NCBI GenBank assembly: GCA_020632235.1
Contig: JACKFY010000001.1
Coordinates: 93,602-157,601 of the forward strand
Origin: Pseudomonadales bacterium
GTDB taxonomy: Bacteria > Patescibacteriota > Microgenomatia > UBA1400 > PJMF01
Direction of reading: 5' to 3'
Length of the DNA: 64,000 nucleotides
Shown: piece by piece, positions 1,052 to 64,000 of the stretch
Position numbering within the stretch: position 1 is the stretch's first letter
Layout: each line of letters starts with the position of its first letter
Made by a program: the position numbers and the translations under genes
The notes under the pieces: model-generated
Told to the model about the DNA's origin: nothing
What the model saw: only the letters and a program-made list of their open reading frames with translations
Databases searched by the model: none

Positions 1052-1375
1052 GTGGCAGGAATTTCTAAAGATATTAAGGCCGAAATCATAGCCAAGGTAA
1101 AGGCAGGGCAAAAAGTGGCGGATTTAGCCAAGGCGTATGGAATTAGCACTAAAACCATCTATAACTGGCTGCGAGGTCAAGTAAAAGAGCAGGTGTCTTG
1201 GCGGGAATACAAACGGGTAATGAAGGAAAACCAACAACTTAAGCAAATACTTGGAGTTCTCACACTCGAACTAGAGAAGTTAAAAAAAAGAACAGAAACT
1301 AGTACATTACTTTTGGAAGCACTGCCACATCTGGATAAAACTCTCTTGGCGGATGCTCTTGGTATTTCTAGGTAG
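1052..1375 (+). CDS. IS3-family transposase OrfA (HTH DNA-binding, leucine zipper)
   Basis: 107 aa, typical IS3 OrfA (KAEIIAKVKAGQKVADLAKAYGISTKTIYNW). Ends with TAG at 1373-1375. Confidence 0.85.
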   Translation: MAGISKDIKAEIIAKVKAGQKVADLAKAYGISTKTIYNWLRGQVKEQVSWREYKRVMKENQQLKQILGVLTLELEKLKKRTETSTLLLEALPHLDKTLLADALGISR

Positions 1376-2155
1376 TGGTTGTACAAAACAGATTTTATTC
1401 AGGTAGAAAAAGACAAGCAGTTAAAGCAACAAATTGAGGAGGTGTAGAGTTCTCACCAGAGCAAAGCCAGTTATGGCTACCGCAGGTTAGCAATTGAACT
1501 AGGAGTTGGTAAGAAGCGAATTCGCAGATGTATGAAGAAATATGGCTTGAGGCCATACAAAAGAAAAGCCAGATGGCGAAAAAGAAGAGATGAACAAAGA
1601 AAGCCAGTAGCTTTTGCAAACGAGATTAAAAACCAGTGTCCACTAGTACCCAACCACACTTGGGCTGGAGATTTTACATACTTGCCATTTAAGGGCAAGT
1701 TTATCTACCTAGCTACTTTCATGGATATTTTTACCAGAGAGATAGTGGCTTGGCAAATATCCGATAGACATGACAAAACATTGGTTATGCAAGCCTTTTT
1801 AGATGGCTTAGTTAACCGAGACTTCCAGAAACCAATATACATCCACTCTGACCAAGGAGCAGAATATTGTTCCCAAGATTACACTGACTTAGTGAAGAAT
1901 TTTGGGGTTACAATTTCCATGAGTACCAAGGCTTCTCCCTGGGAAAATGGTTACCAAGAATCCTTTTACAACAACTTTAAAACTGACTTAGGCCTTGAGT
2001 TTGACCGCTTCGACGATGAAGGGCACTTTCTGGAAGCAATACACCACACCCTTTAGAGCTACAACCATGAAAGAATTCACTCTGCCTTGAAAATGCCACC
2101 CTCCAGATTCCATGCCAAGTATTTACAATCCGTGTCTACGAAAAGGGGCGCTTGA
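1376..2155 (+). CDS. IS3-family transposase OrfB (HTH_21 plus rve DDE integrase core), in the same frame as OrfA and interrupted by in-frame TAG codons at 1445-1447 and 2057-2059
   Basis: Frame 2 continues directly after the OrfA TAG. The sequence WLYKTDFIQVEKDKQLKQQIEEV(TAG)SSHQSKASYGYRRLAIELG... matches the conserved IS3 OrfB N-terminus. The DDE core (HSDQGAEY...) lies in track ORF 1532..2056. The C-terminus (SYNHERIHSALK...) follows the third TAG. Confidence 0.6.
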
Positions 2156-2329: not shown

Positions 2330-2905
2330 CATATAATTCTAATGACGCCACTCCCGCGGACTAAAGTCCGGGGTATCGGCGGTAGCCTTGCAGGCTAGAG
2401 ATACTGGAGCTATTGATTCTTGATGTAGTCTTTTATTACTTGCTCGTTTACTTGTCCTACACTTTCGGCAAAATAGCCATCACACCATAGATTGTTAGAC
2501 CACTCAAATGCTTGAGAGTCTGGGTACTCTTGTTTGATCTTTCTACTGGTTCCACCCTTGAGTATTTGTACAACCTGAGCTACTGACTCTCTTGGCTTGA
2601 TTTGTATCAGAAGGTGGATGTGATCTTCTTGGATGGTTAGCTCTTCTATCCACCACTTATTAATACCACAAGCTTCATAGAACAACTCCTGCAGTCTATT
2701 GGCTATGTTGCCTAGCAAGACTTTCTTGCGCCTCTTTGGTATCCATACTAGGTGGAATCTAAGACGGTGCTTGGTGTGAGAGCCTGTCCAGTATCTTCGT
2801 GCCATAGCTCCAGTATCTCATACTAACCTGATTCGCCATGCTGGCTAGCGCCTACCTGGCTCACAGGTACAAGGCACGATTCATTCCCGGGCTAAAGCCC
2901 GGGGT
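2330..2905 (-). mobile_element. IS200/IS605-family element (TnpA only) with subterminal hairpins
   Basis: Hairpins CCCGCGGACTAAAGTCCGGGG (about 2352-2372) and CCCGGGCTAAAGCCCGGG (about 2887-2905) flank the tnpA ORF. Boundaries are approximate. Confidence 0.55.
2410..2805 (-). CDS. tnpA: IS200/IS605 family transposase TnpA (Y1 HUH)
   Basis: 131 aa with the HUH motif (HIHLLIQIKP) and the conserved Y1 region. Typical size. Confidence 0.85.
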   Translation of the reverse strand: MARRYWTGSHTKHRLRFHLVWIPKRRKKVLLGNIANRLQELFYEACGINKWWIEELTIQEDHIHLLIQIKPRESVAQVVQILKGGTSRKIKQEYPDSQAFEWSNNLWCDGYFAESVGQVNEQVIKDYIKNQ

Positions 2906-2972: not shown

Positions 2973-4039
2973 TCAATTTGGAAATGCACCACTTTGGTCT
3001 AAGACCTTTCTGTAGTGATTAAACTTGTACTTGTTAACTTCTCTCGCCATTGCCTCATTTGGTGTTAGATGGTTCAGACATTTAAGCGGAGCGTTGTTAA
3101 TCCAATTCTCAACTTGCTGGAGATACACTTCACTAACGGTGGTGAGGTCTGTCCCTTTAGGAATAAATCTCCTCACTCTTCCAATCATGTTTTCAACAGA
3201 TCCTTTTTTCCCAAGAATGGTAGGGATAACACACATAACCCTTTGTGCATGTTTTTAGCTAGTTCTTGATGCTGCGTATTCTCAGAGCCATTATCATAGG
3301 TCATTGACTTAATTATGGGATCTCTTGACTTACTCACAGATTGTATCTTTTTTAATGTTTTTTGCATACTTTTTTGCTTGGTTGCAGCTTTCTTATTCTC
3401 AAGCTTTTCAAGTTTGATAAATCTTGTTTTTCTCTCGATATGAGCTGAAACGCTCGCACCTATGCCTCTTGGAGATTCCATCAGATCTGTTTCCCGGTGC
3501 CCGGCTTGCTTGCGGTTGTTTGCCTTTGTGGGGCGATGTTCTATTGACTCCACTCCTTTTATTTTAGATGCTTTTTTAGTCTCAGCACCTGTTTTCTTTG
3601 GTTTTCGTTTCTTGTGACCTCGAACCAAGTAGTGCCACAGCGTATCTCTTCTTCCCAAACCATAGATGTATTGGTAGATGGTTTCATAGCTGATACTTTC
3701 ACCTGGATGATCAATGGGTAATCTTCCCGCTATTTGTTCTGGCGTCCACTTTATCCTTAGTTTCTCTCTTACATACAAAAATACTGCTGGATTTTTGAGT
3801 GGCGCCTGTTGGCGCTGCATCTTTGTCCTCTGTTTGGATAGTGTGTGTGCTTTAACTGGTTTGTATCCCTCATTGCTGAATGGCTTGGAGTTTCGAGACA
3901 GTTCTCGACTGACCACACTATGGTTGCGACCTATTTTTCTTCCAATCCTACGAATTGAGAAGCCTTGTTCCTTTAATTTGTATATTTCCACCCGCTCCTC
4001 TAGAGACAAGTGTGTTCCTTTTTTATGTCCACTTTTCAT
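2973..4039 (-). pseudogene. IS30-family transposase, split into two overlapping ORFs (frameshift near 3185-3236)
   Basis: The N-terminal ORF 3185..4039 has an HTH and the start of the DDE domain (HRETDLM...TYDNGSE). The C-terminal ORF 2973..3236 (LNNAPLKCLNHLTPNEAM) is the IS30 C-terminus in another frame. Confidence 0.7.
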
Positions 4040-8610: not shown

Positions 8611-9002
8611 GAGTACCGCACAGCCCCCAATAAGCCAGATTCTGTTTTGATAGCAATCTATCTAATGCCCGCGTCTTTATCACCGGCTGGCACGAGTGCC
8701 AACTCGCGAGTGTGTGCAATGCGGTGAAGGTCGTCGGTTGCAGCGGGGAGGATTACCCCTCTCACCACGAGTGGTGAGAGGCCTCCTCTCGATTTCTCGA
8801 GGATCAAAGGCGTTTCACCTCCCTCACACGAATGTGAGGGAAATCGTCACTGTTGCTCTAACTGTCGTCCGATTATGACATCGGACGCTCCACCTTTCGA
8901 TGGACACCCTACACTCTGCTGTCCGGACTTTCCTCCCCTCACTTTACTGTCAAGGTCTGGCCTGGCGCGAAAGTGAGGGGCTGCTATCTGTGAGCTGTGC
9001 GG
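8611..9002 (-). ncRNA. rnpB: RNase P RNA (bacterial type A)
   Basis: The minus strand reads GAGGGGAGGAAAGTCCGGACAGCAGAGTGTAGGGTG... (P4/CR-I), ...GGGAGGTGAAACGCC... (CR-II-like) and ...ACAGAATCTGGCTTATTGGGGGCTGTGC (CR-V/P4 3' strand). The P1 stem is GCACAG...CTGTGC. Track ORFs 8369..8719, 8696..8878 and 8847..9089 are spurious. Confidence 0.85.
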
Positions 9003-9102: not shown

Positions 9103-9660
9103 ATGAATCAGGGGTCACAGCAGTACTTCATATTCATGGTATCTCTGGCAATGGATATCAAAATCGTTTTCTTGATGCTCTCATTCAACCGGTACGCTAG
9201 TCGTAGCAATAATAATGTTGAAGTCATTACTGCTATTGGCAATACAGATAATGAAACATATAAACTCAATACTAATGTGAGAGGTGAAAAAGAGTTAACA
9301 ATTTATGCAGATGGTAAAAAAACACACATATATACATACACTTACGATCAGAAGGGTGAAATAAGCAATCTTTCCCTCACCATTGGCGAGGGGGCACACG
9401 TGGAAAATGTCCGTGATAATGACGCTCTCACTTCCCTCACCGTCGCCAAGGGAGCACGCGTGAGGAATATCTCCCACAACAAACACCTCACTTCCCTCAC
9501 CATTGGCGAGGGGGCACACGTGGAAAATGTCCGTGATAATGACGCTCTCACTTCCCTCACCATTGGCGAGGGGGCGAGTGTAAAGAGAATATATGACAAT
9601 AAGGTTCGCATCCCAATATTCGAGAGAATAAAATATTTGATGAGATATATTTTGAGTTAG
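9103..9660 (+). CDS. Small leucine-rich-repeat-like protein with about 20-aa tandem repeats (LTSLTIGEGAHVENVRDNDA)
   Basis: Four near-identical 60-bp DNA repeats at about 9360-9590 encode LTSLT-I/V-GEGA-x-V motifs. The start codon is uncertain. Confidence 0.4.
   Translation: MNQGSQQYFIFMVSLAMDIKIVFLMLSFNRYASRSNNNVEVITAIGNTDNETYKLNTNVRGEKELTIYADGKKTHIYTYTYDQKGEISNLSLTIGEGAHVENVRDNDALTSLTVAKGARVRNISHNKHLTSLTIGEGAHVENVRDNDALTSLTIGEGASVKRIYDNKVRIPIFERIKYLMRYILS
9360..9590 (+). repeat. Four 60-bp in-frame tandem repeats inside CDS 9103..9660
   Basis: CACTTCCCTCACCATTGGCGAGGGGGCACACGTGGAAAATGTCCGTGATAATGACGCTCT repeated with minor variation. Confidence 0.7.
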
Positions 9661-10252: not shown

Positions 10253-12151
10253 GTGAGCCCCTTTGCAGTACAGAGTGTATGTAAAGGATGTATGACCAGC
10301 CACTTACAACAACTTTTTTCCCAAGCTCTCGAAAATCTCGGGATTACTGATCATTCCGCTATTCAGTTGGAACACCCCGCAGACACAACTCACGGTGATT
10401 ACAGCACCAATGTAGCAATGCAGTTGTTTTCTCAGATCAAAAATAAGGTGGAGTACACCAACCCCAGGGAGCTAGCCCAAGGTATTGTGGAGCATGCCAG
10501 CAAGCTTCTTGCTGGTGATGATAGTTTTACTGGTCTCTCAGGCTGTATCAAAGAAATATCGGTAGCTGGACCAGGCTTTATCAATATTTCGTTTCGTGAT
10601 GCTTTTTTTGTGAGTCAGCTCTCTACTATTTTAGAAAAAGGCACTACGTTTGGAACAAACCAGAGTTTGAAGGGGAAAACAGTGGTGGTAGAGTACACCG
10701 ACCCCAACCCGTTTAAAGAATTTCACATAGGCCATCTGTACTCAAACATCGTGGGCGAGAGCATCGCTCGACTGTTTGAAAATTCTGGTGCGACAGTAGT
10801 GCGGGCAGATTTTTTTGGCGATGTAGGCATGCATGCTGCGAAGTCTTTGTGGGGATTACTTCAAAACTTCGCTGATGATGAAATAGATCTAGAAAATTTA
10901 GCGGCAATGCCACTCAAAGAGCGCATCGCGTATCTTGGAAAATCATACGCGCGCGGGGCAACCGCCTATAAAGAAGACGAGGCAGCAGCAGAGTCTATTA
11001 AGCAGCTCAACTTCTTGCTTTTTAAAGCGGCTCAAGAAATTGTCTTGCCGCAGTTTGACGAGCCGCCACAAGTTGATTTTGATCAGTTTATTACCAGCAG
11101 TGAGTGTGACTTTGAGAGCATCAAGCAGATCTACGCCATGACTCGAAAGTGGAGTCTTGATTACTTTGAAGAGATATATGCGCGCCTGGGCACCCGTTTT
11201 GACAACTACTACCCAGAAAGCAGAACGGGTGAAGAGGGCTACCAGATGGTGCTTGCTGGTTTGAAAAAAGGCATTTTTGAAACAGGTGAAAACGGGGCGA
11301 TCATTTTCCCTGGGGAAAAGTATGGGTTACACAACAGAGTGTTTATCAATGCGCTGGGGTTGCCCACCTACGAGACAAAAGACTTTGGACTAGCACTCCT
11401 CAAAGAGCGTGATATTGCTCCTGATTTCTCTATCATCGTGACGGGCAATGAGATCAATGAGTACTTTGCGGTTATTCTCAAATCTCTTGGCCAGGTTGCG
11501 CCTGCACTTGCCCAGTACACGACGCACATCGCGCACGGCATGGTGCGTCTGCCAGAGGGAAAAATGTCGTCCAGGACAGGTAAGATCTTTCGGGGCGAGT
11601 GGTTGCTAGACGAGGCAGTGGAGAGTGCGCATGACCTGCTTACCAGCCCAAGCGCTGACGTTCAACATACTTCAGATTTAGCCGAGCAGATAGGACAGGC
11701 TGCCATTAAGTTCGCCTTTCTCAAGCAAAATGTAGGAGGTGACATAGCTTTTGACTTTGCCGAGTCGGTCAGTTTTGAGGGCAACTCTGGGCCGTACGTG
11801 CAGTATGCTCATGCGCGTACCCAGTCCATCATACGCAAGTCTGGTGGTAGCATCCCGCAGATTTCTGGTGCTGCGTCACTCCTTCCAGCAGAGCGCTCGT
11901 TGGCCCAGCTCCTCTACCAGCTGCCCGAAGTGCTTCTGCAGGCAGCAGAGACGTACCAGCCTCACCTGGTAGCACAGTACCTGTTTGCTGTTGCCCAAGC
12001 GTTCAACAGTTTTTATGCGGCTCACTCAGTGTTGGGTGAGAATGTTACATCAGAGCAAAAACAACTTCGTCTCGCACTCACTATGGCTACGGGTGTTGTT
12101 TTGAAGAATGGCTTACTCGTACTTGGTATAGCAGCACCTGATAGAATGTAG
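10253..12151 (+). CDS. argS: Arginine--tRNA ligase
   Basis: HIGH motif (FHIGHLYSNIVGE). Conserved class-I core and anticodon-binding DALR C-terminus ending ...APDRM, followed by TAG stop. The start may be the downstream ATG (MTSHLQQ). Confidence 0.95.
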   Translation: MSPFAVQSVCKGCMTSHLQQLFSQALENLGITDHSAIQLEHPADTTHGDYSTNVAMQLFSQIKNKVEYTNPRELAQGIVEHASKLLAGDDSFTGLSGCIKEISVAGPGFINISFRDAFFVSQLSTILEKGTTFGTNQSLKGKTVVVEYTDPNPFKEFHIGHLYSNIVGESIARLFENSGATVVRADFFGDVGMHAAKSLWGLLQNFADDEIDLENLAAMPLKERIAYLGKSYARGATAYKEDEAAAESIKQLNFLLFKAAQEIVLPQFDEPPQVDFDQFITSSECDFESIKQIYAMTRKWSLDYFEEIYARLGTRFDNYYPESRTGEEGYQMVLAGLKKGIFETGENGAIIFPGEKYGLHNRVFINALGLPTYETKDFGLALLKERDIAPDFSIIVTGNEINEYFAVILKSLGQVAPALAQYTTHIAHGMVRLPEGKMSSRTGKIFRGEWLLDEAVESAHDLLTSPSADVQHTSDLAEQIGQAAIKFAFLKQNVGGDIAFDFAESVSFEGNSGPYVQYAHARTQSIIRKSGGSIPQISGAASLLPAERSLAQLLYQLPEVLLQAAETYQPHLVAQYLFAVAQAFNSFYAAHSVLGENVTSEQKQLRLALTMATGVVLKNGLLVLGIAAPDRM

Positions 12152-17571: not shown

Positions 17572-17657
17572 CTAATACCCCATAGCTAGAGTACCCCCTC
17601 CGTTTTGTGTGCGAGTTAGCTCGAACAGAAGGGAGGGGGGTATACTACTACTTATAT

Positions 17658-18335
17658 ATGCGAATTTTAGTTATTGAAGATGAAGTAAAACTAGCTACAG
17701 CAGTTAAGAAAGCACTTACTCTTCAATCGTATGCAGTTGACACAGTGCACGATGGTGAGGAAGGATTTGATTTGGCAGTGATGGAGGAGTATGACTGTAT
17801 TATTTCTGACATAATGTTGCCGTCAATGGATGGAGTAGAGTTGTGCAAAAAATTGAGAGAAGAAGGGATAAAAACACCAATCTTACTCCTTACTGCCAAG
17901 GGAGAGCTAGAAGACAAAACAGTAGGGCTTGATATAGGGGCAGACGACTACGTGACAAAACCATTTTCATTTGAAGAGTTATTTGCCCGGGTGAGGGCGC
18001 TTATTCGTCGTCGATATGATACGACTCAGCTCGTCCTTTCGGTTGACAACCTTACCCTTAACACCGCAACCAAGCAAGTTTTAAGCAATGGCGAGAGCAT
18101 TTCTCTTTCAGTCAAAGAATTTGCCATTTTGGAGTATCTTTTACAAAACAAAGGTGTGCCGGTTTCTAAAGAAACGATCATTCAACATGTCTGGGAGTAC
18201 GATACTGATACACTGCCTTCTACCGTAGAGGTGCACATTAAAAATATCCGTGCAAAAATAGACACTCCATCACAAACATCTTTGATTATAACAATCAGAG
18301 GGGTGGGGTACATGATAGAAGAAGCAAAAGGGTAG
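17658..18335 (+). CDS. OmpR-family two-component response regulator
   Basis: MRILVIEDE...D...LLLTAKG receiver, plus a winged-helix C-terminus (ITIRGVGY). The start is moved to the ATG at 17658. Confidence 0.9.
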   Translation: MRILVIEDEVKLATAVKKALTLQSYAVDTVHDGEEGFDLAVMEEYDCIISDIMLPSMDGVELCKKLREEGIKTPILLLTAKGELEDKTVGLDIGADDYVTKPFSFEELFARVRALIRRRYDTTQLVLSVDNLTLNTATKQVLSNGESISLSVKEFAILEYLLQNKGVPVSKETIIQHVWEYDTDTLPSTVEVHIKNIRAKIDTPSQTSLIITIRGVGYMIEEAKG

Positions 18336-18344
18336 TACAGAGCT

Positions 18345-19337
18345 ATGTTTGAGGCAGCACGACTAAAACTGACACTTTGGTATGTAGTGGTCATTATGAT
18401 TGTAACGGGTGTGTTTAGCTCGGCATTTTATTTTTCTTCTACTCGTGAAATCTCTTTGCTCATCAAAAAAATTGAGTCAAATCAAGAGCGAACCATGCTC
18501 CCACCCACCCCCCAACAGCGCATGCACAACTACGCTTCACTCGAAGAGTTGTACGCGCTCAAAGCCCAGTCACTACACTCACTGCTTTTGCTTAATATTT
18601 TGATTTTCTTTTTTTCTGTTTTTTCAGGATTTATTTTGTCTGGTAGAACGCTCCGGCCAATTCAAGACATGCTGGAGCGGCAAAAACGGTTCATCTCAAA
18701 CGCCTCTCACGAGCTCAAAACCCCTGTTGCGGTGATGCGGGCACAGACCGAGGCAGCACTGATGGATGCCAAGCTAACAAAACAAGAGCTCAAAGAGGCT
18801 CTTATCTCAAATCTTGAAGAAATCGAAACTCTGCAAGGCCTCACTGCCTCACTTTTACGACTTACCACAACTGCTGAAAAGCAAAAAACAACATGGCAGC
18901 AGTTTCAACTTGATAAGCTTGTTTCTATGGTGGCACAAAAGCTCCAGCCATTGGCAAGGAAAAAGAGCATTGTACTGCAGACACGTTTGGAGTCGGTGAG
19001 TATGACGGGTAGCAGAGAAGACATTAGTGAGCTGTGCAGTATTCTGATAGAAAATGCCATCAAGCACTCGCCAGAAAAAAGCAGCGTCTCGATTACACTC
19101 AAAAAAGAACGCCGTGGTGTGTACCTATTGGTAGAAGATAGTGGCAATGGTGTAGTACAAGACGACCTACCATTTTTGTTTGACCGGTTTTACCGCTCGG
19201 CCGGTGCTCGTTCTAGCACCGATGGCTATGGCTTGGGTCTGGCTATTGCCAAAGACATCGTGACTACTCACGGGGGGAGCATCTCGGCTCATGCCAAAAA
19301 GGACAAAAAGGGAAGTGTGTTTGTGGTGAGGATGTAG
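18345..19337 (+). CDS. Sensor histidine kinase (HisKA plus HATPase_c)
   Basis: H-box SHELKTP, N-box, and G-boxes DSGNGV...GYGLGLAI. Two N-terminal TM helices. Confidence 0.9.
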   Translation: MFEAARLKLTLWYVVVIMIVTGVFSSAFYFSSTREISLLIKKIESNQERTMLPPTPQQRMHNYASLEELYALKAQSLHSLLLLNILIFFFSVFSGFILSGRTLRPIQDMLERQKRFISNASHELKTPVAVMRAQTEAALMDAKLTKQELKEALISNLEEIETLQGLTASLLRLTTTAEKQKTTWQQFQLDKLVSMVAQKLQPLARKKSIVLQTRLESVSMTGSREDISELCSILIENAIKHSPEKSSVSITLKKERRGVYLLVEDSGNGVVQDDLPFLFDRFYRSAGARSSTDGYGLGLAIAKDIVTTHGGSISAHAKKDKKGSVFVVRM

Positions 19338-21389: not shown

Positions 21390-21573
21390 TTTTGCGGTTG
21401 TTAAACAAAAAGGTATTGAAAATAAAAGAAATTTAGTAAGGGCAATCAACCCACTTGAGGATATTAGACTGGTCTACCAGAACTTTTTGATTGTTGCGGA
21501 AGCGGCGGGCTTTCCGCCAGCCGGCGGACTGTACTTCTCATCCCACCTTTCACGCTCATCACTTCGTTCTTGG
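21390..21573 (-). repeat. tRNA-3'-end-like repeat element, copy 2 (inverted), preceded by a hairpin ending ...GCCA
   Basis: The reverse complement is near-identical over the first about 95 nt (GCCAAGAACGAAGTGATGAGCGTGAAAGGTGGGATGAGAAGTACAGTCCGCCGGCTGGCGGAAAGCCCGCCGCTTCCGCAACAA) to 26303-26390, and about 80% identical over the tail. Confidence 0.7.
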
Positions 21574-21696
21574 CAGAGCACCTGGGTCTGGAACCCGTGC
21601 GTCGTTATAACTGTCCCATTCCAGAATCGAGCTTCCAGGGTAATTTTAGCAAAAACGGGACAAATGGGACACTATAAAAAGGGTGTGTCTTTTTTT

Positions 21697-26217: not shown

Positions 26218-26306
26218 GGAAGCGTCGCATAGTGGCCAATTGCAACAGGTTGCTAACCTGTACCGGTTTTTCTGGTTCGCGGGTTCGAATCCCGCCGCTT
26301 CCGCCA
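26218..26306 (+). tRNA. tRNA-Ser (anticodon GCT), type II
   Basis: GGAAGCGTCGCATAGTGGCCAATTGCAACAGGTTGCTAACCTGTACCGGTTTTTCTGGTTCGCGGGTTCGAATCCCGCCGCTTCCGCCA. The acceptor and T arms are identical to the GGA isoacceptor. Confidence 0.85.
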
Positions 26307-26490
26307 AGAACGAAGTGATGAGCGTGAAAGGTGGGATGAGAAGTACAGTCCGCCGGCTGGCGGAAAGCCCGCCGCTTCCGCAACAATTGAAAAGTTCTGA
26401 TAGACCCGTCTAATACCGCAAAATGGGTTGACAGGGCTTGCTAAATTTCCTTGATTTCAACATTTTTCAGTTTAACAGCCGTGTAAGTGC
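26304..26490 (+). repeat. tRNA-3'-end-like repeat element, copy 3, directly abutting the CCA of tRNA-Ser(GCT)
   Basis: Contains GGCGGAAAGCCCGCCGCTTCCGCAA, which mimics the tRNA-Ser T-arm plus acceptor 3' strand GGGTTCGAATCCCGCCGCTTCCGCCA. The tail is conserved with copies 1 and 2. Confidence 0.7.
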
Positions 26491-26566: not shown

Positions 26567-27646
26567 TGAATAAGGCACGATACATTCCGGAATGGGAAGG
26601 TAATCGTGAAAGCAGGTGAATCGACGAGGATTAGGAAAAATATCGAGATGTTTGGTGGCAACAGCCAGTATGATTGGCTGATGAAAACACTTGAGAATTC
26701 CTTGGCTTTTGACAAGTCAGATCCGGCAAAATTTAGACTGCATGTGTTAGAGCACTACTACAAGTATGGCTGGAAACCTACTGTAGAAGCATTCAAAGTT
26801 GGTAAATCAACCCCTATATGACTGGAAGAAGCAGTACGAGGGATCTGGTAAAGCACTGTTGTCATTAGTTCTAAAAAGACTCGTCCCAAACGAGTTAGAC
26901 AGATGACAACGGATTGGCGGCTGATTCAATTTATTCGTGAGTTTAGACAGCAATATGGCAACATTGGTCGAGAGAAGATAAAGATATTTCTTGATGAATA
27001 TGCAACAGAACTAGGCATAGATTCAATTAGCCATAGGACCATAACAAAAAGTTATTAAACGCAAGAACCTGTATTTTGACCCACCCAAAAAGAAGAAAAG
27101 AAAAAAACAAGTTCTCTCGAGACAGAACGAGGAAGTCACCCAAAGCAACGAGGCCTGGATATGTCGAGATGGACAGTGTGGTAGTGTACATCGATACAAT
27201 TCGCCACAACTTCATGTGCTGTATTGACATCTACACCAAGTTCGCTCATGTGAGAAAAGTCAAAACACTTTCGAGCCTTCAAGCAAAACTGACGTTTCAA
27301 GAGTTTCAAAACAAGTCACCACATCCAGTCCACACTGTCCAAACAGACAATGGCTCTGAGTTCTTCAAAACATTTCATGCATATCTAGAAGACCAAGAAA
27401 TTAAACACCAATTTATCTACCCAAAATCTCCCAAGATTAATGGTGTGGTTGAGAGATTTAACCGCACCATCCAAGAAGAATTCATCAACCGAAATGATGA
27501 GATCTACTTTGACTTAGAGGCGTTTCAAGTTAAACTATCCGGGTACTTAAACTGGTACAACTACAAACGACACATGCATCACTGGGATATCTATCCCCAA
27601 TGCAATTTGTACAAACTAATTTTCCGAAATGTATATGCCTTTAACA
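26567..27646 (+). mobile_element. IS481-like IS, decayed copy (transposase frameshifted) with 5-bp TSD ATAAG
   Basis: Ends TGAATAAGGCACGATACATTCCGG...CCGAAATGTATATGCCTTTAACA. ATAAG occurs at 26562-26566 and 27647-27651. The transposase fragments are track ORFs 26606..26821 and 27076..27654. Confidence 0.8.
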
Positions 27647-28347
27647 ATAAGTAAATCATTCCTTCTTGAATTAAGATGAACTTCAATTGCGGGGAATGTA
27701 TCTGCCATCCCAAAGTGCAAACTCATGCCATTTGAAAGATACAATTCAAACCACCCACCTTTTAGTATGTACTTTCCAATAACAGGTTTATCTTTTTCGA
27801 GTAGCTCAATAGCATCATCTAACTGGTCGTAGCTATTCATTCTTGAGTCGACCAGCACATTAGCTCTACCTTTTTTATAATCCTGAATGCTCCATGAGCC
27901 ATACGAAACAAGAACTCCAGCTTTGTTTACATCTGCTTCATCAAGATGCATTTGAAAAATAGTTCCATAGACTCGAAATGCTTTTTGTATGCTTGAGCCA
28001 ATCAGTAAATCTAGGTCTTTTGAAGCTTGCTTAATACTTATCTGATGTTTCTTAGTCTTTTGAGCTAATACATGGTATCGATCAAAACTATGTACCAATT
28101 TTCGTTGATCAAGAATTGCCGGATCCCAATTTAATCTTTCTTTTAGGAATTCTCTCAATTTTGGTTCTGCATATTCTTTTTCAGATGCAGGGTAAGAGTA
28201 CAACTCAAACTCACCTTGATTTGTATCAATATAATGACGCCAAATATTCCTTCCAGCACTATCAAAATAGGTTACATCCTCAATTTGACCAATTCCCCAA
28301 TGATCTAAAATTCGTTGTAGTACTTGAATGCTATAAATGCTTTTCAT
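27616..28347 (-). CDS. hypothetical protein (possibly kinase-like), C-terminus replaced by the IS481-like insertion
   Basis: The last about 10 codons and the stop are read from the IS terminus. The original C-terminus (...IFEEKELFYNRDFRDK) can be reconstructed across the TSD on the other side of the IS at about 26513-26561. Confidence 0.4.
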   Translation of the reverse strand: MKSIYSIQVLQRILDHWGIGQIEDVTYFDSAGRNIWRHYIDTNQGEFELYSYPASEKEYAEPKLREFLKERLNWDPAILDQRKLVHSFDRYHVLAQKTKKHQISIKQASKDLDLLIGSSIQKAFRVYGTIFQMHLDEADVNKAGVLVSYGSWSIQDYKKGRANVLVDSRMNSYDQLDDAIELLEKDKPVIGKYILKGGWFELYLSNGMSLHFGMADTFPAIEVHLNSRRNDLLIVKGIYISEN

Positions 28348-30748: not shown

Positions 30749-31914
30749 TGTCAAGCGCCCCTTTTCGTAGACACGGATTGTAAATACTTGGCATGGAATC
30801 TGGAGGGTGGCATTTTCAAGGCAGAGTGAATTCTTTCATGGTTGTAGCTGTAAAGGGTGTGGTGTATTGCTTCCAGAAAGTGCCCTTCATCGTCGAAGCG
30901 GTCAAACTCAAGGCCTAAGTCAGTTTTAAAGTTGTTGTAAAAGGATTCTTGGTAACCATTTTCCCAGGGAGAAGCCTTGGTACTCATGGAAATTGTAACC
31001 CCAAAATTCTTCACTAAGTCAGTGTAATCTTGGGAACAATATTCTGCTCCTTGGTCAGAGTGGATGTATATTGGTTTCTGGAAGTCTCGGTTAACTAAGC
31101 CATCTAAAAAGGCTTGCATAACCAATGTTTTGTCATGTCTATCGGATATTTGCCAAGCCACTATCTCTCTGGTAAAAATATCCATGAAAGTAGCTATGTA
31201 GATAAACTTGCCCTTAAATGGCAAGTATGTAAAATCTCCAGCCCAAGTGTGGTTGGGGTACTAGTGGACACTGGTTTTTAATCTCGTTTGCAAAAGCTAC
31301 TGGCTTTCTTTGTTCATCTCTTCTTTTTCGCCATCTGGCTTTTTCTTTTGTATGGCCTCGCCATATTTCTTCATACATCTGCGAATTCGCTTCTTACCAA
31401 CTCCTAGTTCAATTGCTAACCTGCGGTAGCCATAACTGGCTTTGCTCTGGTGAGAACTCTACACCTCCTCAATTTGTTGCTTTAACTGCTTGTCTTTTTC
31501 TACCTGAATAAAATCTGTTTTGTACAACCACTACCTAGAAATACCAAGAGCATCCGCCAAGAGAGTTTTATCCAGATGTGGCAGTGCTTCCAAAAGTAAT
31601 GTACTAGTTTCTGTTCTTTTTTTAACTTCTAGTTCGAGTGTGAGAACTCCAAGTATTTGCTTAAGTTGTTGGTTTTCCTTCATTACCCGTTTGTATTCCC
31701 GCCAAGACACCTGCTCTTTTACTTGACCTCGCAGCCAGTTATAGATGGTTTTAGTGCTAATTCCATACGCCTTGGCTAAATCCGCCACTTTTTGCCCTGC
31801 CTTTACCTTGGCTATGATTTCGGCCTTAATATCTTTAGAAATTCCTGCCACTTTGCCCCCTTTCTGACAACTATTTTAATTACAATTAGTGTCAAGTATA
31901 AGGGGAGCGGGTCA
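30749..31914 (-). mobile_element. IS3-family IS, copy B (inverted; orfB N-terminal region frameshifted; third TAG replaced by TAC)
   Basis: Same termini as copy A. OrfA is at 31531..31851 (one codon shorter in the A-tract). The OrfB C-terminal part is at 30751..31224 and reads through ...HHTLYSYNHERIHSALK. Confidence 0.8.
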
Positions 31915-42125: not shown

Positions 42126-43421
42126 ATGAGTAATCCACATCAAAATGCAGTAGCACAACTAGAGCAAGTTGCAGCGCTTTTGCGACCAGAGTATAGCGAT
42201 GCCGCTCGTTTTGATGCAGCTATCGAGCAGCTCAAAGAACCAGATAGGGTGATTGAGGGTATGATCTCGGTTGTGATGGATGATGGTAGCACCAAAGAGT
42301 TTCAAGCCTACCGCTCTCAGCACAACAACGCGCGCGGGCCGTACAAAGGTGGTATTCGGTTTCACCCTGATGTCACTAAAGACGAAGTCAAAGCTCTTTC
42401 TACCTGGATGACCTGGAAGTGCAGCGTGACGGACATTCCGTATGGTGGGGGGAAGGGTGGGGTGGTGGTTAACCCAACTGAGTTGAGTCCGGCAGAACTG
42501 CAGCGCTTGAGTCGAGCGTACGCGCGGTTTATCGCACCACACGTAGGGCCGTGGGTCGACATTCCTGCGCCCGATGTCAACACCACGCCGGAAATTATGG
42601 CGTGGATGGTGGATGAGTACGAGCAGGTTGCACGTGAGTGGAGTCAGCAGACAGGTATGACATTCCAAGAAAACCCTCGTGCTACCTTTACCGGCAAACC
42701 AGTTGTATTTGGTGGGTCACAGGGGCGTGGTGAAGCAACGGGCTTGGGCGGGGTGTACGTACTACAAGAGCTGGCTAAGGCTCTTGCACTCCACGACCCA
42801 AGTGAAGTCACCGTTGCTGTGCAGGGATTTGGCAACGTTGGTTATTGGTTTGCCTATCATGCTCACCAGCTGGGCTACAGAGTCGTTGCAGTTTCAGACT
42901 CGCGCGGCGGTATCTACGTGCCAGAAGGTCTTGACCCAGCTGCAGTGCTTGCGTGTAAGAAGAGTGGAAAGCCAATCAGCGAGTGTGATGTACCAGGAAG
43001 TACGATAGTAAGTAATAGTGACTTGCTCGAGCTCGATGTTGCGATCTTGGTGCCTTCAGCACTCGAGAATGTGATCACAAAAGAGAATGCCTCAAAGATC
43101 AAAGCGAAGGCTATCATCGAGATGGCCAATGGGCCGGTTATTCCCGAGGCAGACAGTATTTTAGAAGAGCGCGGGATAGTCTCTATCCCTGATGTTTTGG
43201 CCAACGCCGGTGGGGTGACCACCTCATACTTTGAGTGGGTGCAAAACCTGCAGGGTTACTACTGGACGCGAGATGAAGTTTTGGCAAAGCTACAGCCTCT
43301 TATGACCAGCTCATTTCAAACAATGTGGCAGATGAAAGAAAAACAAAATGTCTCGCCGCGCATGGCCACCTACTTGAGCGCAGTCAAAAAAGTGATAGAT
43401 GTCATGCTCCTTCGCTCCTGA
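42126..43421 (+). CDS. NAD(P)-specific glutamate dehydrogenase
   Basis: KGGIRFHPDVTKDEVKALSTWMTWKCSVTDIPYGGGKGG plus the GFGNVG dinucleotide fold. Confidence 0.9.
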   Translation: MSNPHQNAVAQLEQVAALLRPEYSDAARFDAAIEQLKEPDRVIEGMISVVMDDGSTKEFQAYRSQHNNARGPYKGGIRFHPDVTKDEVKALSTWMTWKCSVTDIPYGGGKGGVVVNPTELSPAELQRLSRAYARFIAPHVGPWVDIPAPDVNTTPEIMAWMVDEYEQVAREWSQQTGMTFQENPRATFTGKPVVFGGSQGRGEATGLGGVYVLQELAKALALHDPSEVTVAVQGFGNVGYWFAYHAHQLGYRVVAVSDSRGGIYVPEGLDPAAVLACKKSGKPISECDVPGSTIVSNSDLLELDVAILVPSALENVITKENASKIKAKAIIEMANGPVIPEADSILEERGIVSIPDVLANAGGVTTSYFEWVQNLQGYYWTRDEVLAKLQPLMTSSFQTMWQMKEKQNVSPRMATYLSAVKKVIDVMLLRS

Positions 43422-51509: not shown

Positions 51510-52588
51510 TGTTAAAGGCATATACATTTCGGAAAATTAGTTTGTACAAATTGCATTGGGGATAGATATCCCAGTGATGCATGTGGTCGTTTGTAGTTGT
51601 ACCAGTTTAAGTACCCGGATAGTTTAACTTGAAACGCCTCTAAGTCAAAGTAGATCTCATCATTTCGGTTGATGAATTCTTCTTGGATGGTGCGGTTAAA
51701 TCTCTCAACCACACCATTAATCTTGGGAGATTTTGGGTAGATAAATTGGTGTTTAATTTCTTGGTCTTCTAGATATGCATGAAATGTTTTGAAGAACTCA
51801 GAGCCATTGTCTGTTTGGACAGTGTGGACTGGATGTGGTGACTTGTTTTGAAACTCTTGAAACGTCAGTTTTGCTTGAAGGCTCGAAAGTGTTTTGACTT
51901 TTCTCACATGAGCGAACTTGGTGTAGATGTCAATACAGCACATGAAGTTGTGGCGAATTGTATCGATGTACACTACCACACTGTCCATCTCGACATATCC
52001 AGGCCTCGTTGCTTTGGGTGACTTCCTCGTTCTGTCTCGAGAGAACTTGTTTTTTCTTTTCTTCTTTTTGGGTGGGTCAAAATACAGGTTCTTGCGTTTA
52101 ATAACTTTTGTTATGGTCCTATGGCTAATTGAATCTATGCCTAGTTCTGTTGCATATTCATCAAGAAATATCTTTATCTTCTCTCGACCAATGTTGCCAT
52201 ATTGCTGTCTAAACTCACGAATAAATTGAATCAGCCGCCAATCCGTTGTCATCTGTCTAACTCGTTTGGGACGAGTCTTTTTAGGAACTAATGACAACAG
52301 TGCTTTGCCAGATCCCTCGTACTGCTTGTTCCAGTCATAGAGGGTTGATTTACCAACTTTGAATGCTTCTACAGTAGGTTTCCAGCCATACTTGTAGTAG
52401 TGCTCTAACACATGCAGTCTAAATTTTGCCGGATCTGACTTGTCAAAAGCCAAGGAATTCTCAAGTGTTTTCATCAGCCAATCATACTGGCTGTTGCCAC
52501 CAAACATCTCGATATTTTTCCTAATCCTCGTCGATTGACCTGCTTTCACGATTACCTTCCCATTCCGGAATGTATCGTGCCTTATTCA
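51510..52588 (-). mobile_element. IS481-like IS, intact copy, with 5-bp TSD GTTCG
   Basis: Same termini as 26567..27646. GTTCG occurs at 51505-51509 and 52589-52593. Single 345-aa transposase ORF 51512..52549. Confidence 0.85.
51512..52549 (-). CDS. IS481-like DDE transposase (HTH plus rve core)
   Basis: DDE context VQTDNGSEF...INGVVERFNRT..., with the C-terminal YNYKRPHASLGYLSP. Confidence 0.85.
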   Translation of the reverse strand: MKAGQSTRIRKNIEMFGGNSQYDWLMKTLENSLAFDKSDPAKFRLHVLEHYYKYGWKPTVEAFKVGKSTLYDWNKQYEGSGKALLSLVPKKTRPKRVRQMTTDWRLIQFIREFRQQYGNIGREKIKIFLDEYATELGIDSISHRTITKVIKRKNLYFDPPKKKKRKNKFSRDRTRKSPKATRPGYVEMDSVVVYIDTIRHNFMCCIDIYTKFAHVRKVKTLSSLQAKLTFQEFQNKSPHPVHTVQTDNGSEFFKTFHAYLEDQEIKHQFIYPKSPKINGVVERFNRTIQEEFINRNDEIYFDLEAFQVKLSGYLNWYNYKRPHASLGYLSPMQFVQTNFPKCICL

Positions 52589-62494: not shown

Positions 62495-62557
62495 TGACCC
62501 GCTCCCCTTATACTTGACACTAATTGTAATTAAAATAGTTGTCAGAAAGGGGGCAAA

Positions 62558-62881
62558 GTGGCAGGAATTTCTAAAGATATTAAGGCCGAAATCATAGCCA
62601 AGGTAAAGGCAGGGCAAAAAGTGGCGGATTTAGCCAAGGCGTATGGAATTAGCACTAAAACCATCTATAACTGGCTGCGAGGTCAAGTAAAAGAGCAGGT
62701 GTCTTGGCGGGAATACAAACGGGTAATGAAGGAAAACCAACAACTTAAGCAAATACTTGGAGTTCTCACACTCGAACTAGAGAAGTTAAAAAAAAGAACA
62801 GAAACTAGTACATTACTTTTGGAAGCACTGCCACATCTGGATAAAACTCTCTTGGCGGATGCTCTTGGTATTTCTAGGTAG
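62558..62881 (+). CDS. IS3 transposase OrfA (copy C)
   Basis: Identical to 1052..1375. Confidence 0.85.
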   Translation: MAGISKDIKAEIIAKVKAGQKVADLAKAYGISTKTIYNWLRGQVKEQVSWREYKRVMKENQQLKQILGVLTLELEKLKKRTETSTLLLEALPHLDKTLLADALGISR

Positions 62882-63661
62882 TGGTTGTACAAAACAGATT
62901 TTATTCAGGTAGAAAAAGACAAGCAGTTAAAGCAACAAATTGAGGAGGTGTAGAGTTCTCACCAGAGCAAAGCCAGTTATGGCTACCGCAGGTTAGCAAT
63001 TGAACTAGGAGTTGGTAAGAAGCGAATTCGCAGATGTATGAAGAAATATGGCTTGAGGCCATACAAAAGAAAAGCCAGATGGCGAAAAAGAAGAGATGAA
63101 CAAAGAAAGCCAGTAGCTTTTGCAAACGAGATTAAAAACCAGTGTCCACTAGTACCCAACCACACTTGGGCTGGAGATTTTACATACTTGCCATTTAAGG
63201 GCAAGTTTATCTACCTAGCTACTTTCATGGATATTTTTACCAGAGAGATAGTGGCTTGGCAAATATCCGATAGACATGACAAAACATTGGTTATGCAAGC
63301 CTTTTTAGATGGCTTAGTTAACCGAGACTTCCAGAAACCAATATACATCCACTCTGACCAAGGAGCAGAATATTGTTCCCAAGATTACACTGACTTAGTG
63401 AAGAATTTTGGGGTTACAATTTCCATGAGTACCAAGGCTTCTCCCTGGGAAAATGGTTACCAAGAATCCTTTTACAACAACTTTAAAACTGACTTAGGCC
63501 TTGAGTTTGACCGCTTCGACGATGAAGGGCACTTTCTGGAAGCAATACACCACACCCTTTAGAGCTACAACCATGAAAGAATTCACTCTGCCTTGAAAAT
63601 GCCACCCTCCAGATTCCATGCCAAGTATTTACAATCCGTGTCTACGAAAAGGGGCGCTTGA
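62882..63661 (+). CDS. IS3 transposase OrfB (copy C), in frame with OrfA and with the same in-frame TAG codons
   Basis: Identical to 1376..2155. Confidence 0.6.
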
Positions 63662-64000
63662 CAAGGTTAGCATTCATGAATGCTTGCTTGGTTGTTTTAA
63701 ACCCATCTATCAGCTCTTGGCTTCTGTGCGCTACGGGATAGTGGATGTCGTTGGTCATGGTTTTGTTACTTTTTTCGTTTAGTTCTGCTCGAGAAATGGT
63801 ATGAATTCGGAAAAATTGACTGGGTCAGCGAGCTGGAGTATCCGGAGTGGACGGTGAAGGAAGTAGGAAGATTCTTGCAATATTGATTGCCCTCCTGCCG
63901 ATTTTGTTTCATACTAAATATAGATGAAAAACCTGCCCAAACTTATTATTTCTGTAATTGGTTGTGAGCTAGTGGGGATTCTGGGGAGCGTGTTTACTGT

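Follow-up and report, generated by a model that had tools for sequence, protein, structure and literature searches.

The transposase reading frame near the start of this sequence, which is interrupted by three TAG codons, probably belongs to a defective insertion sequence (IS) of the IS3 family that is present in three copies in the window (the whole 64-kb stretch of DNA that was analysed), with the TAG codons being ordinary nonsense mutations rather than a decoding signal. Stated more broadly, it is likely that these copies form a defective, nonsense-inactivated lineage of an IS3 element that used slippage at a run of nine adenosines (A9), and this formulation includes the variant in which inactivation was favoured by selection. 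An earlier sequence-only reading of the same DNA had offered three explanations for the TAG codons, namely expression gated by amber suppression or leaky readthrough, origin in an amber-recoded replicon such as a phage, or a family whose copies went on multiplying although inactivated. The third of these fits best, given that the TAGs are absent from relatives, are derived by single-base changes and are restricted to one clone. The genome carrying the element is that of a CPR bacterium (Patescibacteria, Candidatus Woesebacteria), and the G+C content of the window is 43.8%.

Copy A is a 1169-bp element with 5'-TG...CA-3' ends that occupies positions 989-2157 on the forward strand, as delimited by repeat families and by a three-way alignment of the copies; beyond 989 and 2157 it no longer resembles the other copies or the relatives. 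The left and right terminal inverted repeats (IRL, 989-1026; IRR, 2120-2157; both listed on the forward strand) pair with each other within a 39-nt imperfect inverted repeat (988-1026 versus 2120-2158) that is 74% complementary. The ends read TGACCC...TTGACA and are of the IS3 type (TG...CA), and the end sequence of this IS is TGACCCGCTCCCC. Copy C is located on the forward strand at 62495-63663 and has an ORF identical to that of copy A, with TAG codons at 62879-62881, 62951-62953 and 63560-63562 and a run of eight adenosines (A8) at 62788-62795. Copy B is located on the reverse strand at 30749-31914 and carries TAG at the first two sites (31531-31533 and 31459-31461) and TAC at the third (30850-30852). 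The three-way alignment thereby confirms the earlier statement that the first two TAG codons are present in copies A, B and C and that the third site is TAC in copy B.

Copy B is also damaged in other ways that the sequence-only reading had overlooked. Its adenosine run has seven residues (A7) with a net 3-nt deletion at this location, it has an L220I change, and its segment at 31258-31359 has frameshifting indels of -2, +1 and +1 that scramble about 33 codons and introduce two extra stops. The lesions private to this copy are mostly homopolymer-type indels. Additional inactivating lesions, which the sequence-only reading had named as a finding that would count against its proposal, are therefore found in copy B and are not found in copies A or C.

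Translation of copy A in a single frame from the GTG at 1052 through position 2158 (forward strand) yields 367 codons with exactly three internal stops, all of which are TAG. These are located at 1373-1375 (TAG1), 1445-1447 (TAG2) and 2054-2056 (TAG3), upstream of a genuine TGA stop at 2153-2155. The translation bears out the earlier description of 1052-2155 as one continuous frame broken only by three TAG codons, except that the third had been placed at 2057, three nucleotides from its real coordinate of 2054. When the TAG codons are read as X, the product matches the NCBIfam profile NF033516 (IS3 family transposase, cutoff 160 bits) with a score of 243 bits in one stretch covering model positions 3-367 of 369. 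Thus, the homology to orfA and orfB lies in the same frame, and the full-length collinearity with IS3 OrfAB proteins that had been suggested as a check is observed. A -1 frameshift at the adenosine run was considered and rejected because the -1 frame meets a TAG after 7 codons, and because all homology remains in frame 0 with no restart of OrfB homology in another frame, in agreement with the earlier claim.

The domain content of the TAG-masked product is that of a complete transposase, with the Pfam domains HTH_23, HTH_21, rve (87.7 bits) and rve_3 in the expected order and with HTH_23 and HTH_Tnp_1 matches at residues 5-66. The DDE catalytic core (rve, residues 200-296, positions 1649-1939, forward strand) is intact in copies A and C, and columns in the catalytic region are invariant in an alignment of the window transposase with its relatives. 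From its GTG to TAG1 (1052-1375, forward strand), copy A encodes a 107-aa OrfA-like product that consists of the HTH, a coiled-coil region and 26 N-terminal residues of orfB. This is the sole long product expected from the 5' end of copy A, and the NCBI MAG contains three annotations of exactly this 107-aa protein.

The reason for the single frame became apparent from a collection of 168 related loci drawn from GTDB genomes, JGI metagenomes and other assemblies, most of which are from Patescibacteria. In essentially all relatives with 49-89% amino-acid identity (about 50 distinct relatives in CPR genomes), orfA ends in exactly nine A residues and then a G, with orfB in the +1 frame, and this A9 run is invariant while the surrounding codons vary freely. 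More distant relatives (44-48% identity) have CCC-A7-G with orfB at -1. Removal of one A in silico from the run of five relatives produced stop-free ORFs of about 368 codons that are collinear with the window frame. The window lineage has precisely such a change: an A8 run (1282-1289, forward strand, in copy A) is present in place of A9, an adjacent GAA is also missing, and the A8 recurs in independent assemblies. One 4-nt deletion could account for the loss of both the A and the GAA. The loss of one A from the run means that the OrfA-OrfB fusion is hard-wired in the DNA of the window lineage, where the A8 run that puts orfA and orfB in one frame is a remnant of the transcriptional-slippage site of the clade that the sequence-only reading had missed.

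Accordingly, the missing -1 frameshift is explained by a trait of the whole clade combined with a single mutational step and does not constitute a new architecture. The sequence-only reading was right that no -1 frameshift architecture is present and that a single frame is used, but the departure from IS3 convention is less unusual than it had proposed because the clade as a whole uses A9 with orfB at +1. Precedent for such a design exists. Runs of A9 in IS elements were identified early on as the commonest use of transcriptional slippage, and length variants from A8 to A10 were noted among otherwise identical IS copies (Baranov et al. 2005, PMC1088944). For the IS1447 element of Clostridium thermocellum, 9 of 52 cDNA clones carried A8 compared to the templated A9, and it was shown experimentally that only the change from A9 to A8 gives full-length transposase (Liu et al. 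2018, PMC6211511). By analogy with IS1447, we infer that transcriptional slippage operates in the CPR clade. No consensus hairpin upstream of the A9 run was predicted by RNAalifold on 23 relatives.

The codons found in relatives at the three TAG sites are informative regarding the origin of the stops. The closest relatives (L003-L008 and L095), with 85% nucleotide and 88-89% amino-acid identity, carry CAG, TGG and TAC at these sites, and each TAG is therefore one base change from the codon of its sister lineage. The first site is variable across the family (Arg, Ala, Ser, Gln and others), with Gln (CAG, or CAA in some other relatives) or Arg in the nearest sequences. The second is Trp in the closest relatives and mostly Leu in the rest of the family, whereas the third is Tyr in copy B and the closest relatives and is Asn, Tyr or His in the family. 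Relatives thus have sense codons at all three sites, in agreement with the earlier claim that the TAGs interrupt sense positions of IS3 transposases. No stop was found at residues 108, 132 or 335 among about 125-140 distinct relatives.

Given these observations, the description of the TAG codons as conserved cannot be retained. Conservation across relatives was rejected after the survey of 168 loci from GTDB genomes and JGI metagenomes, since the stops are absent from every diverged relative. TAG-bearing copies from at least nine other samples, recovered by the ENA MEGAHIT, ENA scaffold, Logan and NCBI pipelines, are 99.5-100% identical to copy A, and all have TAG at each of the three sites together with A8. 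Because the TAGs are restricted to a clone whose members are at least 99.5% identical, they are shared by descent and not by conservation under selection. The site-B copy in two other samples has TAG rather than TAC at the third site, and so the TAC of copy B in the window may be secondary rather than ancestral. Among other decayed members of the clade, premature stops are a mixture of TAA (9), TGA (7) and TAG (4), which indicates that there is no bias toward TAG in the clade. From the codon content of the ORF, the probability that three nonsense mutations would all be TAG is about 0.044, and that they would all be the same stop is about 0.13. Thus, the uniform use of TAG is weak evidence on its own.

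We propose that the defective lineage arose in the following manner. Normally in the clade, orfB is read at +1 relative to orfA and the two are joined at the invariant A9, and slippage by RNA polymerase to A8 would then create the mRNA for the OrfAB transposase, as it does for IS1447. The loss of one A and the adjacent GAA from the DNA of the window lineage would have hard-wired this fusion. Afterwards, in an order of events that we infer, three ordinary point mutations from CAG to TAG, TGG to TAG and TAC to TAG would have truncated the fused gene. What the copies could still make would be a DNA-binding protein of 107 aa that resembles OrfA, along with catalytic fragments lacking their N-terminus, and no transposase. 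Addition of an A at the A8 run by RNA polymerase would be predicted to yield a normal 84-aa OrfA ending in KKKNRN, the same C-terminus as that of OrfA in relatives. In contrast, production of full-length transposase would require readthrough of three UAG codons, which should be negligible without a suppressor. The TAGs could be common to all copies either through descent from one mutated ancestor or through homogenisation by gene conversion.

A puzzle that remains is how an element with three stops and an otherwise pristine ORF came to be present at many locations with no intact twin found. In public assemblies, the triple-stop element adjoins at least five different left flanks and at least five different right flanks, and at least five insertion sites therefore exist in the host species. 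Several searches for an intact, near-identical master copy were conducted. Nothing with greater than 89% amino-acid identity was present in a search of 5.8 billion proteins, a 100-nt degenerate pattern had no match in JGI contigs, and protein-guided scans of GTDB genomes and JGI metagenomes found nothing closer. Mobilisation in trans by a compatible relative and gene conversion among older copies are the candidate routes by which the copies spread. No matching pair of 3-4 bp target-site duplications flanks copy A, B or C (copy B is bordered by CAC/CAT), and short-read contigs join the flanks of different IS copies. One observation that bears on help in trans from a compatible relative is that the first 44 nt of copy A are identical to those of relative L003, even though the ORF of L003 is just 85% identical.

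If the three stops are set aside, copies A and C have an ORF that is preserved as well as those of intact relatives. Its dN/dS relative to the nearest relative is 0.077, compared to 0.076 between two intact relatives, and it has one private substitution (G233A) at columns that are at least 95% conserved, compared to a mean of 0.84 for intact relatives. Under neutral decay, every nonsense change should be accompanied by about twelve missense changes. Variation within the TAG lineage presents a different picture, in that the ORF variants include four nonsynonymous changes (L77S, L220I, L220V and I262T) and three synonymous changes, with two independent changes falling on a Leu that does not vary across the family. 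At the dN/dS of about 0.07 that characterises the lineage's past, the probability of at least four nonsynonymous changes among seven is about 0.02, where the counts are small. On these few changes, polymorphism that has accumulated since the stops arose looks relaxed. An IS481-like element whose second copy is decayed and an IS30-like element with a frameshift are also present in the window, and these other broken ISs are disrupted by frameshifts, not by TAG.

That nonsense changes outnumber what the few missense changes would predict, in an ORF that is pristine in other respects, raises the possibility that the stops were selected rather than neutral, which would be a variant of our main explanation. 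Fused-frame mutants of IS3-family elements are hyperactive and OrfA is inhibitory, as is known for IS911, IS3 and IS2. If the A8 fusion were likewise hyperactive, the element might have burst to several sites, after which selection on the host would have favoured nonsense alleles. We consider this scenario unlikely, and are similarly doubtful of its finer details, in which TAG1 would re-create a 107-aa OrfA-like repressor and gene conversion would carry the stop-bearing alleles to all copies. The known behaviour of fused and OrfA products counts in its favour, as does the placement of TAG1 only 26 codons past the adenosine run, such that the truncated HTH and coiled-coil product resembles the OrfA of relatives, which has 84 aa. 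Recombination between copies would be consistent with the contigs that have mixed flanks. However, these contigs were assembled from short reads across a 1.2-kb repeat and could be chimeric, gene conversion is a conjecture, and it is difficult to see why TAG2 and TAG3 would be selected once TAG1 is present.

Another proposal, and one that we judge to be quite improbable, is that the TAG codons are read through by a suppressor tRNA of the host or a phage or by leaky termination, such that full-length OrfAB would be produced at a low rate or under certain conditions, and that the element is autonomous. The suppressor might equally come from a stop-codon-recoded phage or be a host tRNA(CUA) encoded outside the window, and this version of the proposal fares no better. 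Its appeal is understandable, given that all three stops are TAG, that the ORF otherwise bears the signature of strong purifying selection, and that no intact master is known for an element found at five or more sites. Furthermore, the ancestral Gln, Trp and Tyr codons are each one base from TAG, and near-cognate or classic suppressor tRNAs could plausibly insert acceptable residues at these positions. Nevertheless, the evidence argues against readthrough on several grounds. The three sites are free of stops in all of the relatives surveyed, and three different ancestral amino acids are found there. The seemingly relaxed polymorphism since the stops arose, and the continuing decay of copy B, likewise count against it. 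Without a suppressor, and assuming typical readthrough rates, passage through three stops would be expected to generate only about one in a million products.

The manner in which the host uses TAG is also problematic for this proposal. The stops of 64 long, non-overlapping ORFs in the window are TAA in 32 cases, TAG in 18 (about 28%) and TGA in 14, which agrees with the earlier view that the host uses TAG as a stop and that recoding is not genome-wide. The argS gene (10253-12151) ends in TAG, as had been noted, and its alignment extends to the end of the argS model. Only one pair of same-frame ORFs in the window is separated by TAG (17607-18335 and 18345-19337). This pair was examined as a candidate for readthrough and rejected, because the ORFs encode a response regulator followed by a histidine kinase and are thus two genes, with TAG ending the response regulator gene directly before the kinase gene. 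A suppressor tRNA(CUA), for which a search had been recommended, was not found by ARAGORN or Rfam in the 64-kb window, where the RNA genes are tRNA-Ser(GGA), tRNA-Ser(GCU) and RNase P RNA. Our literature search revealed neither TAG recoding in Patescibacteria nor transposases gated by amber codons. Amber suppression as put forward in the sequence-only reading consequently has no positive support, in light of the Gln, Trp and Tyr ancestry of the sites, the TAG terminators of the host and the lack of tRNA(CUA) in the window.

Origin of the element in a replicon with a recoded TAG, for instance a phage in which this codon specifies an amino acid, followed by stranding in a host with the standard code, is highly improbable and already largely refuted. 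The all-TAG pattern is its sole support. In a recoded donor, TAG would be expected to stand for a single amino acid, whereas the ancestral residues are Gln, Trp and Tyr, and the element has just three TAGs, each of which is a single-step derivative of the sister codon. Moreover, the closest relatives reside in CPR chromosomal contigs and have sense codons at these sites, and a scan of IMG/VR for exact patterns of the window IS, which addressed the earlier suggestion to look for recoded phage contigs with the same IS, yielded no match and therefore provides the phage hypothesis with no positive support. An artefact of sequencing or assembly, for example an error of consensus building or polishing that was propagated to every repeat, has a comparably slim chance of being correct: repeats are error-prone in MAG assemblies and the private lesions of copy B are mostly of the homopolymer type, but artefact is contradicted by recurrence of the same TAGs and A8 in assemblies made independently, by several pipelines, for at least nine samples, and the housekeeping genes of the window are intact.

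It seems appropriate to question what value these findings hold. As it stands, a nonsense-inactivated IS whose single frame is one step from a known slippage design matters little. If amber suppression were true, it would represent a novel mechanism in which transposition depends on the translational state of the cell, and it would explain the TAG-only stops, the pristine ORF and the occupancy of at least five sites without an intact master, but the evidence argues against it. The spread of a triple-nonsense element to at least five sites without a detectable intact sibling poses a question of modest value. Also of modest value is the invariant A9 and +1 arrangement of a large CPR-wide IS3 clade, which would extend the transcriptional-slippage strategy of the IS1447 type well beyond Firmicutes and into bacteria with tiny genomes.

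Comparison with known systems places the window IS in the IS3 family by its transposase profile and its ends, while the -1 frameshift usual in the family is lacking, as it is in the whole clade. It resembles the canonical elements IS3, IS911, IS150 and IS2 in its transposase profile, TG...CA ends and domain order. However, these elements employ -1 programmed ribosomal frameshifting at A AAA AAG, and neither the window IS nor its close relatives have the -1 relation. Named plasmid-borne IS3 elements are at most 31% identical to the window transposase. The ISs inactivated by nonsense or frameshift mutations in IS-rich genomes, such as that reported for Amoebophilus asiaticus (PMC3196728), are similar in that near-identical copies occur alongside degenerate IS families, and in that multiple copies exist without evidence of current autonomy. 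The window element differs in that the lesions of copies A and C are stops only, are all of one kind and lie in an ORF that is otherwise pristine.

Further parallels are offered by elements that use slippage. The A9-slippage ISs compiled by Baranov et al. (2005, PMC1088944) likewise have a homopolymer at the junction of orfA and orfB whose length varies, and the lengths observed here (A8 in copies A and C, A7 in copy B and A9 in relatives) can be compared with the A8-A10 variants in that work. Those examples were described as functional, whereas in the window a run-length variant is combined with three nonsense mutations. A likeness also exists between the relatives of the window IS and the IS1447/IS120 subgroup, which share an orfA that ends in nine A residues, an orfB at +1, the formation of OrfAB upon loss of one A, and the order of the HTH, coiled-coil and DDE domains (PMC6211511). 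The clade would thus appear to work like this subgroup, a likeness that is drawn from architecture and that does not place the clade within it. Several differences are evident as well. The inverted repeats of the window IS begin with TG, unlike the TA of the IS1447 subgroup (PMC6211511), the hosts are CPR bacteria rather than Firmicutes, and no conserved hairpin precedes the run in 23 relatives, in contrast to the report on IS1447. Furthermore, the window copies have A8 in their DNA, such that the fusion has already been made. With their A8 or A7 runs and their reading frame in frame 0, the window copies are best regarded as derivatives of the A9 and +1 design rather than as examples of it.

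The copies that carry the in-frame TAG codons at identities of at least 99.5%, which we refer to as the TAG lineage, are not uniform at these codons or elsewhere. At the third site, the defective IS3-family copy at site B reads TAC in the window (30850-30852), and the copy recovered at the same site from two other samples (L093 and L094) reads TAG. These two share the same 15-nt flank, with one SNP in the flank. Judged from these sequences, the Tyr codon TAC in the window may have arisen secondarily from TAG instead of being ancestral. A family-invariant Leu position, codon 220 (window 1709), has three alleles within the lineage: CTA, ATA in copy B, and GTA in seven contigs from other samples.

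Five metagenome contigs (L090, L091, L180, L092 and L179) join left and right flanks that belong to different copies when compared with copies A, B and C. A-left is joined to C-right, A-right to C-left, and B-left to the right flank of a fourth site. Such contigs either are assembly chimeras formed through the 1.2-kb repeat or show that the 61.5-kb interval between A and C has been deleted or duplicated through IS activity within the population. No 3-4 bp target-site duplication is recognisable at the window boundaries 988/2158, 30748/31915 and 62494/63664, or at the related loci L178 and L181. The trinucleotide CAC ends three of the five distinct left flanks, which hints at a target preference.

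Directly downstream of copy A lie an IS200-like Y1 transposase gene (2410-2805, minus strand) and an IS30-like transposase (2973-4039, minus strand) that is frameshifted into segments of 284 aa and 87 aa in different frames; together, these genes form an IS pile-up. An IS481-like (rve) element is also present twice, at 51512-52549 (minus strand) and 26606-27654 (plus strand), with one copy intact (345 aa) and the other disrupted by frameshifts. A repeat of about 125-180 nt occurs in three copies with 85-87% identity (289-414, 21420-21597 and 26280-26490). One of these overlaps the 3' part of tRNA-Ser(GCU) (26218-26306), and the repeat could represent what is left of an integration site, or else a small mobile element. 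The ORF at 9103-9660 contains a tandem repeat (9372-9602) with a period of 60 nt and 66-85% identity, and a bacterial class A RNase P RNA is found at 8615-8999 (minus strand; 116 bits).

At NCBI, the protein identical to GdhA (window 42126-43421) carries two labels, one record naming Candidatus Woesebacteria and another Pseudomonadales. Titles such as 'uncultured Pseudomonadales' or 'Gammaproteobacteria' have been given to many CPR-like MAGs of the genome collection, apparently a case of systematic mislabelling.

Among relatives of the element, the conserved Trp39 codon of orfA (YNWLRG) is TGA in L034 and L037 (both at 1615-1617), two different loci with 47-53% identity. This could reflect independent TGG to TGA decay or be a hint of UGA decoding in the hosts of these two relatives.

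Throughout a large IS3 clade (L003-L174) whose hosts are mostly Patescibacteria MAGs, the orfA/orfB junction is an invariant A9 run with orfB in the +1 frame (for example, L003 1855-1863 and L177 at about 1133-1141, as well as L009 and L095). Remoter members place orfB at -1 behind a CCC-A7-G junction, and in a few members orfA and orfB are fused through A8. This pattern suggests that transcriptional slippage of the IS1447 type is widespread among CPR bacteria.
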